From the NCBI RefSeq assembly GCF_056746865.1, contig NZ_CM163382.1: a DNA stretch of 64,000 nt. One strand, given 5' to 3'. Made by a program: the position numbers. Shown here piece by piece: positions 12,601-24,600 of the stretch; the stretch's first letter is position 1; the number at the start of each line of letters is the position of its first letter.

Positions 12601-15600
12601 ACTATGTGATTCAAAGCGTCATCGCATAAACCACTACATCTTGCTCCTGTTAACCCGCTATCATTACCGTTTTCCTCCAGCGGGTTTAACAGGAGTCCTC
12701 GCATGAAATACATTGGAGCGCACGTTAGTGCTGCTGGCGGTCTGGCAAATGCCGCAATTCGCGCCGCCGAAATCGACGCAACCGCGTTTGCCTTGTTCAC
12801 CAAAAACCAACGTCAGTGGCGTGCCGCACCGCTCACGACGCAAACCATCGATGAATTCAAAGCCGCCTGTGAAAAATATCACTACACATCGGCGCAAATT
12901 CTTCCCCACGACAGTTATCTGATTAACCTCGGACATCCGGTCGCTGAAGCTCTGGAAAAATCGCGCGATGCGTTTATAGATGAAATGCAGCGTTGCGAAC
13001 AGCTGGGGCTTTCTTTGCTCAACTTCCACCCTGGCAGCCATCTGATGCAGATTTCAGAAGAGGATTGCCTTGCGCGTATTGCCGAATCCATCAACATTGC
13101 GCTGGATAAAACTCAAGGTGTGACAGCGGTGATTGAAAACACCGCCGGTCAGGGCAGTAACTTAGGGTTTAAATTCGAACATCTCGCGGCGATTATCGAC
13201 GGCGTGGAAGATAAATCCCGCGTCGGCGTCTGCATTGATACCTGCCATGCTTTTGCTGCCGGGTATGATTTGCGTACTCCAGCCGAATGCGAGAAAACGT
13301 TCGCGGATTTTGCCCGTATTGTCGGCTTTAAGTATCTGCGCGGGATGCACCTTAACGATGCGAAAAGCACCTTTGGCAGCCGCGTTGACCGCCATCATAG
13401 CCTCGGTGAAGGCAATATCGGTCATGATGCGTTCCGCTGGATCATGCAGGACGACCGTTTCGACGGCATTCCGCTGATCCTTGAAACCATCAACCCGGAT
13501 ATCTGGGCAGAAGAGATCGCCTGGCTGAAAGCGCAACAAACTGAAAAAGCGGTAGCCTGAAGATGAACAACCGGGAGAAGGAGATCCTTGCAATTTTACG
13601 GCGTAACCCGCTGATTCAGCAGAACGAAATTGCTGATATGCTGCAAATCAGCCGTTCGCGCGTTGCGGCGCATATTATGGATTTAATGCGCAAAGGTCGA
13701 ATTAAAGGCAAAGGTTACATTCTCACCGAGCAGGAATACTGCGTAGTGGTGGGGACAATCAATATGGATATTCGCGGGATGGCGGATATCCGTTACCCGC
13801 AAGCGGCTTCTCATCCCGGTACCATTAATTGCTCGGCAGGCGGCGTTGGACGCAATATCGCCCACAATCTGGCGCTGTTAGGCCGCGACGTCCATTTGCT
13901 TTCAGTGATTGGCGATGACTTTTATGGCGAAATGCTCCTGGAAGAAACGCGCCGCGCCGGCGTGAATGTCTCCGGCTGCGTTCGTTTACATGGTCAAAGC
14001 ACATCGACGTATCTGGCAATTGCCAATCGAGACGATCAAACCGTGCTGGCGATTAACGATACCCATCTGCTGGATCAGTTGACACCGCAACTACTGAACG
14101 GGTCGCGCGATTTACTTCGTCATGCGGGCGTGGTACTGGCTGATTGCAACCTGACAGCCGAGGCGCTGGAGTGGGTCTTTACCCTCGCTGATGAGATCCC
14201 GGTGTTTGTCGATACCGTTTCAGAATTCAAAGCGGGCAAAATCAAACACTGGCTGGCGCATATTCACACCCTGAAACCCACTTTACCGGAGCTGGAAATT
14301 TTATGGGGACAGGCGATCACCAGCGATGCTGACCGTAATGCCGCAGTGAATGCGTTGCATCAGCAAGGCGTTCAGCAACTGTTTGTTTATTTGCCCGATG
14401 AGTCAGTTTATTGCAGCGAAAAGGATGGAGAGCAATTTTTGCTGACCGCGCCAGCGCATACGACAGTAGACAGTTTTGGTGCTGACGATGGTTTTATGGC
14501 GGGCCTGGTATATAGCTTTCTGGAGGGAAACAATTTCCGTGACAGCGCCCGTTTTGCGATGGCCTGCGCGGCAATTTCACGCGCCAGCGGCAGCTTAAAC
14601 AACCCTACCCTGTCTGCCGATAACGCGCTGTCATTAGTGCCAATGGTGTAACAATGTTGCCGGATGCGACGCTTAACGCGTCTTATCCGGCCTACAAATC
14701 AGGCAATTTCAGCAAGTAAATGTAGGCCTGATAAGCTTGCGCATCAGGCAATGACACTCAAGCTAAACCAATAAAGAACCCGGCAATGGTCGCACTCATC
14801 AAGTTGGAAAGCGTCGCCGCCGCCAGCGCGCGTAAACCAAGCTGGGCGATTTCCGGCGCACGGTGTGGCGCAACCGCAGAAAATGCGCCAACCACCACCC
14901 CGATAGAACCAAAGTTAGCGAAACCGCACAACGCGAAAGAAATAATCGCCACGGTTTTAGCATCCAGAGTGCCAGCTGTTTGCAGATAAGGTGAGAAATT
15001 GAGGTAAGCGACAAATTCATTTATTGCCAGCTTCTGTCCAATCAAACTCCCGGCAAGATTCGCATCACTCCAGTCAACCCCCATCACCCATGCCAGTGGA
15101 GCCAACAGGTAACCTAAAATGGACTCCAGCGAGGCATGTTCAAAACCAAACCAGCCGCCAACGCCGCCGATAATACCGTTAATCAACGCAATTATTGCAA
15201 CAAATGCCATCACCACTGTCGCCACACCTGCGGCGATTTTCAGCCCGGTCATTGCCCCTGTAGCGGCGGCTTCAATAATGCTTTTTGGCGGTGTTTCGGT
15301 GAAAGAGAGGTTATTAAAGGAAACCTGCGAAGATTCCGTAGCCGGGCTTAACAGGCGGGCAAACAAGATCCCGCCGGGGATCGCCATTAACGATGCCGCT
15401 AGCAGATATTCCACAGGCACGCCCAGTGCGGCGTAACCAATCATTGTCGAACCAGCAATCGAGGCCATGCCACTACAAATAGCCGTAAATAATTCATTGC
15501 GATTCAGACGATCGATAAAGGGTTTGACGATTGCCGGAATTTCGTTTTGCCCGAGGAAAATGGTAGTGACCGCGACGAATGACTCAATCTTGCTGATATT

Positions 15601-21600: not shown

Positions 21601-24600
21601 TCACAGGAGAGCGCCATTGACGAACATCCCTGTGCGAAACGAACAGATTCGGCAAACGGCATTCCGTCTACCCAACACGAAGCAAGTCCCGCCATCATGG
21701 CATCGCCCGCTCCGGTAACATTAATGACATTGGTTTTGATCGGCGCAGACCAACCACTTTCACCGCTGATATCACTGTAATAAACGCCGTCGCCGCCCAT
21801 GCTCATTACCAGTCGGTTCAGGCCATGTTGATGGAACCAGGCAGCAACTTTTGCCACATCTTCACGCCCTGACAAAGCAATCCCACTCAAGGTTTCCGCT
21901 TCAAGGCGGTTTGGCTTCAGGGTGTGGATCTGATTTAGACGGTCACGCACTTTGACACATTTCCATGCCGAAACCGGATCGACAAATACAGGTACATTGG
22001 CGGCATTATCCAGAATCCATGCCAGTGCCTCTTCACTGATATTACAGTCCGCGACAATGACCTTTGCCCTTTGAATAAATTCACGGTGCTGTGCGAGATA
22101 TTCAGCTGTAATAGCGTTGCTAATATTCATGTCATTTATAGCAACCAGCATTTCACCGGTATTATCGAGTAATGATAAATAGCTCGACGTGTTTTCTCCC
22201 GGCACAATCAGGCATTTATCGACATAAACACCAGATTGATTGGTTTGCGTTAGCAACGATTGACCATAAAAATCACTGCCTACTGCGCTCAGTAGCCAGG
22301 ATTTATTCCCCAGCAACGCCAGGTTTTGTGCAATATTGCGCCCGACTCCACCAGGCGTAAATTTTATTTTACCTGGATTTGAATCCGCATAATTTAATGA
22401 TTCATGTGAATATCCGGCGACATCAATATTCGCCGAACCTATAATTACGACATAATCCTTTTCGCGCATAGCACGTCCTCTGGTAAAAAATTACCAACCC
22501 TGTCAATCCACAAGAATATTGATACTGCAAAGACGGTTTAAACATGTGTTCATATTTAAACATGTGCTCATAGTATGCATGTTTTACGTAAAGTAAATTA
22601 CCGCCAGAGAGGCAAAATGGGCAGATTTGAGCAGGCTCACAAAACGCGATTAAATGCCTGAATTATAAAAACGGGGAATTTGTGACGGGATGCACAGAAC
22701 AGGAACAATAAAAAAGGGCAGAAATTAATCTGCCCTTGAGGAAATAACCTTAGTGTTTGATGAAGGTTTCAGGTTTCTACTAAAAGATAAAACCATTTAA
22801 ATTCATAAAATTACATTCACAAACCGGTCATTCTCTTTGCGCGCATCAAATGTTACAGGGCAGGAAATTTCTGCCCTGTAACACACCTTTTATTACGCTG
22901 CTTTCGCTACTGCGTCCACTTCCGGACGTTTCAGGAAGGCATAGGCCAGACCCGCCACCAGCGTACCGGCAATAATGGCTACCAGGTAACCCAGTACCGG
23001 CGTAATAGCGCCAGGGATCAGCAGAACAAACAGACCACCGTGCGGTGCCATCAGTTTCGCACCAATCGCCATTGAGATTGCGCCAGTCAGCGCCCCACCC
23101 ACGATACAGCACGGCAGCACACGCATCGGATCACGAGCAGCAAACGGAATTGCACCTTCCGAAATGAAGCACAGTCCCAATACCAGAGCGGCTTTGCCAC
23201 CTTCCTGCTGCGCTTTGTCGAATTTGCGACGCGCCACCATTGTTGCCAGGCCCATTGCCAGCGGTGGCACCATACCTGCCGCCATAATCGCCGCCATCGG
23301 GCCATAGGTTTGAGTACTCAGCAGACCCACACCGAATGCGTACGCTGCTTTGTTTACCGGACCGCCCATGTCAGTACACATCATGCCACCGAGGATCGCC
23401 CCCAGCAGAACCGCATTCGCAGTCCCCATGGTCTGCAGCCAGTGAGTCAACCCTTCGAGAATGCCAGCAACCGGTTTACCGATCAGGTAGATCATCGCCA
23501 GACCGACCACCAGACTGGAAATTAGCGGAATGATCAGAATCGGTTTCAGCGCCTCCATACTCTGTGGCAGTTTCAATTGCGTACTGATTAACTTCGCAAT
23601 GTAACCAGCCAGGAAGCCCGCAATAATACCGCCAATGAAGCCAGAACCAGTGCTGACCGCCAGCATACCGCCAATCAGACCCGGCGTGAGACCCGGACGA
23701 TCGGCAATGGAAAAGGCAATATAACCTGCCAGTACCGGCACCATCAACGCAAAGGCTGAACCACCACCAATCTGCATCAGCGCCGCAGCCAACGTACCCG
23801 GCTCTTTAAACGCTTCGATACCAAAAGCAAAAGAAAGCGCGATACACAGACCACCTGCAACGACCATCGGCAGCATGTAAGAGACGCCAGTCAGCAAGTG
23901 ACGGTAAGCGCCTGCACTCTCTTTCTTACCTTCAGTGGTCGCTGTTTGAGTTTTGCCCGCCGGTTCATACGGCGTTGCTTCAGCAACCGCATTATCCAGT
24001 TCCTGCGCGGTTTTCTTCAGCGCCAGACCGGTAGAGGTACGATACATCGGTTTACCAGCAAATTTCGCCAGATCCACTTCGATATCTGCCGCCACAATCA
24101 CCAGATCCGCTGCTGCGACTTCTTCGGGAGTGATTGCATTACCCGCGCCAACAGAACCACGGGTTTCAACTTTCACCCACCAGCCACGTTTTTTCGCTTC
24201 GGTTTCAATGGCTTCAGCCGCCATAAAGGTGTGTGCTACGCCAGTCGGGCAAGCAGTCACCGCAACTACGCGTTTCGGACCGCTGGCGGCAACCGGTGCT
24301 GTCGCAGCGACCGGCGCAGTGTAAGGTTTCGCATGGCCTTTGGCTTCACTCAGGAACAGCTCAGGGTGCGCAACTGCCCGGGAAATATCGCCCAGCCAGA
24401 CATTTTTACCGTTCAGCGCGCTGTCGTTCGGGATGGAATCACCGAGAACAATCGCCATTTCAGCGTCGTTCGGATTGTCGATGATTTCCAGTTTTGCTTT
24501 TCGCGCCGCCGCGCCCAGCAGGGTCTTCGCCATATAGGCGCGTGCCTGACCGAGATTAGCGTCAATAATCAGCAGCGTTTTCATTATGCCTCTCCTGCTG

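Follow-up and report, generated by a model that had tools for sequence, protein, structure and literature searches.

Two nested nucleoside cassettes with paralogous permease genes between nfo and fruA in Escherichia coli

We analysed a 64,000-nucleotide stretch of DNA (NCBI RefSeq assembly GCF_056746865.1, contig NZ_CM163382.1; referred to throughout as the window), in which the nucleoside-salvage genes yeiI, nupX and rihB lie next to the pseudouridine genes psuT, psuG and psuK. An original prediction, made from the sequence alone, had read these genes as two paralogous modules, consistent with an old segmental duplication. Instead, two different cassettes are nested here and no module is duplicated. 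Cassette P appears to consist of psuK-psuG-psuT together with yeiI, and cassette R of yeiL divergent from rihB-nupX, the genes for a pyrimidine nucleoside hydrolase and the permease that goes with it; in Escherichia coli, R lies within P, between psuT and yeiI. We consider it highly likely that these two cassettes, with paralogy limited to the permease genes and their leaders, partial gene conversion between those genes, and a very recent insertion sequence (IS) in rihB, together account for the locus.

Gene contexts in other taxa

Contexts were sampled with a GTDB genome scan (at least 600 rows; contexts among the matches listed) and with look-ups of permease and YeiL relatives; the absence of a taxon from the scan carries no meaning. 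The same chromosomal site (fruBKA ... nfo-yeiH-yeiE-lysP) is found in many taxa. P, with a convergent yeiI and one permease and without yeiL or rihB, is present in E. albertii, Citrobacter sp. FP75, C. youngae, C. werkmanii, a Leclercia metagenome-assembled genome and K. michiganensis. R stands alone, without yeiI, at the same site in a Leclercia adecarboxylata genome, a Salmonella enterica assembly, Buttiauxella and one further contig, and at other sites in K. spallanzanii, Superficieibacter and Hafnia. Both cassettes occur in the E. coli order in C. freundii, with R between psuT and yeiI, and in the opposite order (yeiL rihB nupX, then psuK psuG psuT yeiI) on a Leclercia-like metagenome contig (7145–14829 of that locus). 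Among the loci listed, yeiI is present in 10/10 psu-containing loci, adjacent to psuT in all of them, and in 0/7 R-only loci. In other genera, including Hafnia, yeiL always adjoins rihB, and in Enterococcus it adjoins a nucleoside hydrolase gene.

It is on these contexts that P and R are proposed as the natural units. Because yeiI travels with psuKGT and never with rihB-nupX alone, the set of yeiI, nupX and rihB appears to be an accident of adjacency; the regulator gene that belongs with rihB-nupX is yeiL. We reassign yeiI to the pseudouridine system, with the hypothesis that YeiI is a pseudouridine-related kinase or regulator; the protein is still uncharacterised and is nearest to pseudouridine kinases (PMC9061257, PMC12506659). 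The lesson for annotation is that gene adjacency pointed to a yeiI-nupX-rihB module for which comparative genomics gives no support.

Two further contexts involve relatives of YeiI and YeiL. In ‘Klebsiella sp. BIGb0407’ (4817–8272), a protein of YeiI architecture (winged helix-turn-helix plus PfkB kinase) overlaps the start of psuG and is followed by a CNT permease 72% identical to NupX, with an ArdA antirestriction gene nearby; evidently, a YeiI-type kinase can replace PsuK upstream of psuG. In Enterococcus malodoratus (2924–5672), a YeiL homologue (58% identity) is divergent from an operon encoding a nucleoside hydrolase, a PfkB kinase and a Bmp/ABC nucleoside transporter, and the YeiL–hydrolase pairing is either ancient or has moved between Firmicutes and Enterobacteriaceae.

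Similarity between the two gene sets

NupX and PsuT are 88.7% identical in amino acid sequence over 416 residues without gaps, and their genes are 79.8% identical; the value of about 80% originally given for the proteins over this length is that of the DNA. YeiI and PsuK share 39.7% amino acid identity. Pairwise comparison of RihB and PsuG detected no similarity, and the two belong to Pfam families with different folds (IU_nuc_hydro and Indigoidine_A, respectively).

The proposed check for flanking homology was run as a sensitive blastn comparison (14400–16400 against 18900–20900), which does find similarity past the coding sequences, all of it short. Downstream, the permease alignment continues for 16 nt beyond the stop codons (14742–14757 against 19242–19257), and one 20-nt arm of a repetitive extragenic palindromic (REP) element matches at 19 of 20 positions (14657–14676 against 19213–19232). 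Upstream, the 21 nt adjoining the ATG align (16/21) and, past a 41-nt indel, a 28-nt leader box is 27/28 identical (16034–16061 against 20575–20602), a match with no like in 100 shuffles. Sensitive blastn found no similarity beyond the permease gene, the 16-nt and 21-nt flanks, the leader box and the REP arm. The REP arm occurs at no fewer than 40 places per E. coli genome (at least 40 in 4366 records), and for this reason its match is uninformative on duplication. The repeats themselves are imperfect palindromic units, present in many copies and intergenic after stop codons, as is typical of REP elements and bacterial interspersed mosaic elements (BIMEs), and a permissive Rfam scan of 13000–23500 returned a weak naRNA4/REP-like match.

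The paralogous DNA is the permease gene and a short leader (~50–100 nt), ~1.35 kb in all, and not a three-gene module. The similar upstream segments that had been pointed out are real as far as the 21 nt and the 28-nt box, with nothing beyond. The matching REP-containing sequence downstream likewise holds for the 16 nt and one REP arm, and does not look like a relic of duplication: REP elements are multi-copy and the match is specific to one haplotype.

Locus layout and gene identities

Genes were named from an open reading frame (ORF) listing of the window and comparison with annotated E. coli chromosomes, and gene families were checked with NCBIfam/TIGRFAM models at curated cut-offs and with Pfam domains. 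The region is the standard E. coli locus from nfo to fruA, with yeiH, nfo and yeiI on the plus strand, nupX and rihB on the minus strand, yeiL on the plus strand, and psuT, psuG, psuK and fruA on the minus strand. The ORF listing, the annotated chromosomes and the family models all agree with the gene positions and identities of the original prediction, which was also right that the pseudouridine genes are intact and that the arrangement yeiI-nupX-rihB-yeiL-psuTGK is already known in E. coli; the locus is an ordinary one. The regulator gene yeiL, which sits between the two gene sets, had been overlooked. The features are as follows:

13563–14651, plus strand: yeiI, winged helix-turn-helix plus PfkB sugar kinase, substrate unassigned (NF007416, 811 bits, cut-off 561; Pfam HTH_24 and PfkB)
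14655–14757: yeiI–nupX intergenic region, two inverted REP units (BIME); long haplotype, 106 nt
14758–16008, minus strand: nupX, CNT-family nucleoside permease, intact, 416 residues (TIGR00804, 500.2 bits, cut-off 442)
16009–16107, minus strand: rihB–nupX intergenic leader, with a hairpin 3′ of the rihB stop, then a 19-nt hairpin motif (16034–16052) within the 28-nt box (16034–16061) common to psuT
16108–16253, minus strand: rihB 3′ fragment, last 47 codons plus stop, severed (by alignment to the intact rihB of RM14516 and 118UI)
16254–17563, plus strand: IS629/IS1203, IS3 family, 1310 bp
17564–18362, minus strand: rihB 5′ fragment, codons 1–266
18492–19190, plus strand: yeiL, CRP/FNR-family regulator, divergent from rihB (NF007707, 420.5 bits, cut-off 180; cNMP_binding and HTH_Crp_2)
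19212–19252: single REP hairpin in the yeiL–psuT gap, with 20-nt inverted arms
19258–20508, minus strand: psuT, CNT-family permease of the pseudouridine operon, intact (TIGR00804, 517.1 bits, cut-off 442)
20509–20601, minus strand: psuG–psuT leader, with the hairpin motif at 20575–20593 and a second G+C-rich hairpin plus UUU at 20532–20555
20602–21540, minus strand: psuG, pseudouridine-5′-phosphate glycosidase (Pfam Indigoidine_A, 442 bits; RefSeq annotation of the identical gene)
21528–22469, minus strand: psuK, pseudouridine kinase (NF007355 equivalog, 714 bits, cut-off 540)

In the window, yeiI is convergent with nupX, and nupX is 100% identical to that of strain 118UI. All three Pfam domains (Nucleos_tra2_N, Gate and Nucleos_tra2_C) are found in both NupX and PsuT, which are full-length CNT transporters; weak uridine and cytidine transport is reported for NupX and none for PsuT (PMC11241209). 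The psuT gene is orthologous to the lone permease gene of E. albertii, Citrobacter and K. michiganensis. YeiI reaches 257.8 bits with the PsuK model NF007355, below the cut-off of 540, and is thus no PsuK equivalog.

Age of the permease duplication

Trees were neighbour-joining only, bootstrapped, and built with a numpy implementation. In the protein tree, all rihB/yeiL-linked permeases form one clade (79% bootstrap) and the psu-linked permeases form a grade, with Leclercia PsuT basal (92%). Since the mean distance within the NupX-type permeases (0.111) is similar to that between NupX-type and PsuT-type permeases (0.123), the split appears to be as old as the genera sampled and not a recent E. 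coli event; the duplication would predate the split of these enterobacterial genera. The permease phylogeny, which had been suggested as a check, thus speaks for an old duplication, with the proviso that the 3′ half of nupX seems to have been partly homogenised with psuT.

Partial gene conversion between nupX and psuT

Identity between the two permease genes of a genome was set against a baseline of nupX-type genes of R-only genomes compared with psuT-type genes of P-only genomes:

Baseline: 5′ half 79.5%, 3′ half 79.4%, last 250 nt 79.4% (maximum 84.0%), longest identical run at most 44 nt
Window nupX and psuT: 5′ half 77.2%, 3′ half 82.1%, last 250 nt 85.6%, longest run 33 nt
E. coli SCPM-O-B-8794: 5′ half 77.0%, 3′ half 84.0%, last 250 nt 92.8%, longest run 137 nt
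C. freundii: 5′ half 78.3%, 3′ half 91.0%, last 250 nt 95.1%, longest run 83 nt
Leclercia-like contig (opposite order): 5′ half 79.5%, 3′ half 77.7%, last 250 nt 80.5%, longest run 32 nt

There is no identity excess between the two permease genes of the Leclercia-like contig, in which the cassettes have the opposite order. In trees of nt 620 to the end, nupX joins the psuT genes of its own genus, with 100% bootstrap for E. coli nupX in Escherichia and 93% for C. freundii nupX in Citrobacter, and a tree of the last 250 nt unites the two paralogues of C. freundii (99%); in trees of the 5′ 620 nt, the Escherichia and Citrobacter nupX-psuT groupings get 0–3%.

The end of nupX differs between E. 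coli strains. In RM14516, the nupX stop and 3′ flank equal those of E. albertii psuT (TAG TGCGCGA.TTATGAGCCGGATAAGACGC), and the window, 118UI and K-12 derivatives have a psuT-like nupX end (GCT TGA GT.TCATTGCC) and an extra REP. The long nupX 3′ flank haplotype is found in 1266/5426 genomes and the short 55-nt form in RM14516 and E. albertii; over the last 55 nt, the window and RM14516 differ at 11 sites, of which 10 agree with psuT. The downstream flank match is confined to this one haplotype and has the appearance of a small patch of gene conversion together with REP elements, rather than of something left by an ancient duplication. The E. coli nupX leader box has two sequences in common with E. 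coli psuT, the loop AAAGCC and, upstream of it, TTTCTGA, and in this it differs from the nupX leaders of other genera. Together, our preferred explanation of the flank matches combines a leader element that is conserved, gene conversion acting locally, and REP elements. Where the genes stand in the order P, R, yeiI, conversion would have homogenised the nupX 3′ half and patches of its leader and 3′ flank with the neighbouring psuT and, as the tracts are strain-specific and of differing length within E. coli, the process appears to be ongoing there. The locus is useful as an example of partial gene conversion between linked paralogues.

Some finer dissections were dropped. A chimera test, in which sites differing between E. 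coli nupX and psuT were scored against outgroups, left a clean single-crossover hybrid unsupported, with E. albertii psuT being psuT-like throughout and having short nupX-like patches only. Breakpoint mapping by type-distinguishing sites had too few sites (6), and the terminal Leu codon (TTA/CTG) was abandoned as a marker of permease type as psu-only genomes carry both.

At a larger scale, the window is 97.1% identical to RM14516 on the yeiH–nupX side (12500–16253) and 99.7% identical on the rihB–fruA side (17567–23500), and because the two sides differ in this way, the locus is a recombination mosaic within E. coli.

Alternative histories of the locus

If an ancestral kinase-hydrolase-permease module had been duplicated as one segment, with the copies diverging afterwards, this would fit the presence in both sets of a PfkB kinase, a glycosidic-bond-cleaving enzyme and a CNT permease, as well as the alignment of the permeases and their short flanks. 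We give this history almost no credence, because RihB and PsuG are of unrelated families, divergence is unequal (40% identity for the kinases against 89% for the permeases), gene order and orientation are not colinear, with yeiI convergent with nupX whereas psuK heads its operon, and yeiI keeps company with psuKGT and not with rihB-nupX alone. The two paralogous modules of the original prediction, and the old segmental duplication behind them, are accordingly set aside in favour of paralogy of the permease and its leader.

Also very unlikely, in our judgement, is that nupX is a recent in-situ duplicate of psuT in Escherichia whose 5′ half diverged fast under a new specificity. The 100% bootstrap grouping of the E. 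coli nupX 3′ half with Escherichia psuT, the RM14516 nupX flank and the single permease of E. albertii all agree with such an origin. However, the full-length protein tree puts E. coli NupX with the rihB/yeiL-linked permeases (79%), E. coli nupX bears the NupX-type base at 4 of the 6 sites that distinguish the types, the nupX leader of SCPM-O-B-8794 shares ATAACGnnnTCAGACC with Salmonella, Buttiauxella and Superficieibacter leaders, and the rihB-nupX-yeiL linkage is kept in Hafnia and many other genera. A variant of our best explanation, not exclusive of it, is that cassette R integrated by homologous recombination inside a resident permease gene, which gave nupX its psuT-like 3′ part and flank. 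R sits exactly between the permease gene end and the ancestral psuT flank, and a psuT-like 3′ half is restricted to genomes ordered P, R, yeiI, being absent where R precedes P, as on the Leclercia-like contig. The exchange is not reciprocal, however, in that the E. coli psuT 3′ half is also of the Escherichia type (with E. albertii), and this counts against integration because a single crossover of an excised circle predicts reciprocity; strain-specific tracts of differing length also point to ongoing conversion instead. We regard integration as possible, with the balance tilting against it.

The account we prefer, of nested cassettes, partial conversion and a recent IS, has points of its own to answer. 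Events could have run in either direction, with R inserted into P in the lineages of E. coli and C. freundii, or lost repeatedly through recombination between psuT and nupX in E. albertii and the other Citrobacter. The trees are of one kind and of limited sampling (genomes among the matches listed). The conversion signal of the window is modest, with the last 250 nt at 85.6% compared with a baseline maximum of 84.0% and a 33-nt run that is within the baseline, and only 6 sites, all within nt 167–598, reliably separate NupX-type from PsuT-type genes. For the IS, a sigma-70 consensus scan (below) is compatible with a weak or non-sigma-70 nupX promoter.

A conserved hairpin in the permease leaders

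A 19-nt motif, [GA]GGCAG-N3-GC-N-GTCGCC[CT], is present 44–87 nt upstream of the ATG in 23/23 leaders from ~10 genera, and in 0/73 loci with more distant CNT genes. The copies in the window, both on the minus strand, are at 16034–16052 (nupX) and 20575–20593 (psuT). The proposed stem is paired in 88.7% of cells, compared with 32–55% when the partners are slid, and the stem base shows compensatory changes (CG 13, UA 5 and UG 2 at one pair; GC 19 and AU 2 at another), with a fully re-paired version, AGGCAAC-ATATT-GTTGTCT, in Hafnia; the sample is small and its sequences are related. The psuT leaders have the second G+C-rich hairpin followed by UUU (20532–20555 in the window), which the nupX leader of the window and most other nupX leaders are without, and the predicted fold of the psuG–psuT leader has z = -3.1. 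Apart from the frameshift pseudoknot of the IS and weak REP-like matches, the permissive Rfam scan of 13000–23500 returned nothing, leaving the leaders unmatched. Pairing of a leader CAUACC with the ribosome-binding site was considered and dropped, as it is not conserved across leaders.

The hairpin may determine how strongly the permease is expressed compared with the enzyme gene upstream of it; between these two genes it could plausibly act in processing, stabilisation or attenuation. It is a speculative suggestion, to which we attach little confidence, that the hairpin and the sequence following it constitute a cis-regulatory or processing RNA element not described before and common to the leaders of all permeases of the PsuT/NupX clade. 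The conserved hairpin is, with the reassignment of yeiI, a useful by-product of the analysis.

The IS629/IS1203 insertion in rihB

It had been predicted that an IS interrupts rihB and partly cripples the first gene set, and the disruption of rihB is confirmed. Alignment to strains with intact rihB places the element at 16254–17563, between copies of a 3-bp target duplication, CAC (16251–16253 and 17564–17566), and its terminal inverted repeats, read directly, are TGAACCGCCCCGG... and ...CCGGGGCGGTTCA. The coding features within it are:

16308–16634, plus strand: orfA, overlapping orfB
16631–17521, plus strand: orfB, overlapping orfA; IS3 transposase models match
16589–16705: ALIL frameshift pseudoknot (Rfam, 121.5 bits; gathering score 50)

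Overlapping ORFs, a -1 frameshift signal, terminal inverted repeats and the 3-bp duplication are all features of the IS3 family, and an annotated IS1203, in strain F1 E4, matches the element at 99.9% identity; IS1203 and IS629 are one and the same element. This copy transposed very recently into rihB codon 267, antisense to the gene. The gene is interrupted past codon 266 of 313, with the first mismatch to intact RihB at residue 267, and its 5′ part continues into the IS as a 344-residue fusion ORF (17328–18362), in which RihB residues 267–313 are exchanged for 78 IS-encoded residues. The match to NF007417 is restricted to profile positions 1–267 of 313, short of the full-length IU_nuc_hydro fold of an intact RihB, and the fragment keeps the N-terminal DxDxxxDD motif (DCDPGHDD). 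Because a C-terminal helix completes the nucleoside-hydrolase active site, with late strands forming the tetramer interface (PMC8910321), RihB is probably inactive, having lost its C-terminal 47 residues including the active-site helix.

Excising the IS and one CAC gives a RihB identical to that of E. coli 118UI (NZ_CP032515.1). This strain has an intact rihB and, IS aside, zero mismatches to the window over 9.7 kb, the rest of the 11-kb region compared; the window strain acquired the IS after their common ancestor and, because the rest of the region is 100% identical, the insertion is very recent. The junction was found in 0/5426 complete RefSeq E. coli genomes in the collection, of which 5399 have rihB and the downstream leader intact. 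The psu operon and yeiI are untouched by the IS. A sigma-70 consensus scan of the nupX strand found no promoter-like site in the rihB–nupX gap or where the IS ends, which is weak negative evidence. The IS probably lowers nupX expression too, by polarity. A strain-specific IS hop has thus deprived the strain of an intact RihB and perhaps of much of its NupX expression.

In F1 E4 (NZ_CP040307.1), the 99.9% identical IS1203 has the same orientation and lies in the same rihB-nupX neighbourhood, and it is an independent event ~190 bp from the window site, in the rihB–nupX intergenic hairpin and 4 nt upstream of the leader box (5015–6325 of that locus). There, rihB remains intact but is parted from nupX.

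Loss of nupX in E. coli

In 991/5430 complete E. coli records (~18%), the best match to nupX is psuT, i.e. nupX is lacking. E. coli Z0117EC0117 has an internal 1137-bp nupX deletion, with a 66-nt 5′ remnant joined to the last 44 nt of the gene (3340–3540 of that locus). The nupX losses and the independent IS1203 of F1 E4 indicate that the R cassette is evidently dispensable; many genomes carry one cassette only. A visible phenotype of RihB loss is unlikely, because a triple rihA rihB rihC deletion has no apparent phenotype (PMC8910321) and ~18% of complete E. coli are without nupX. In Z0117EC0117, the nfo end and all of yeiI (2100–3401 of the locus) are only 83% identical in DNA to those of the window, which far exceeds normal within-species divergence and suggests that this nupX-less lineage may carry an imported allele.

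Comparison with known systems

IS insertion, cassette nesting, gene conversion and REP turnover are all known kinds of event. The K-12 locus yeiI-nupX(yeiJ)-rihB(yeiK)-yeiL-psuT(yeiM)-psuG(yeiN)-psuK(yeiC), b2160–b2166, has the same genes in the same order and orientation as the window, and a K-12 derivative shares its long nupX 3′ flank haplotype; compared with K-12 strains, the rihB-nupX segment is 97.1% identical and nupX 96.6%, and the window differs in the IS629/IS1203 insertion in rihB. The pseudouridine catabolic operon psuKG(T) (Preumont et al. 2008, according to the passages of PMC12506659 and PMC9247573 that cite it) is present without difference, with PsuK and PsuG above curated cut-offs, and what can be added to it is yeiI as a consistent companion.

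Linked paralogues can evolve in concert by gene conversion, as tufA and tufB do in enterobacteria. As in such cases, nupX and psuT of the same genome are locally more alike than comparison of orthologues predicts and share long identical runs. Unlike them, conversion between nupX and psuT would be partial, covering the 3′ half, the stop region and the leader box, with the 5′ half keeping the differences between the two types.

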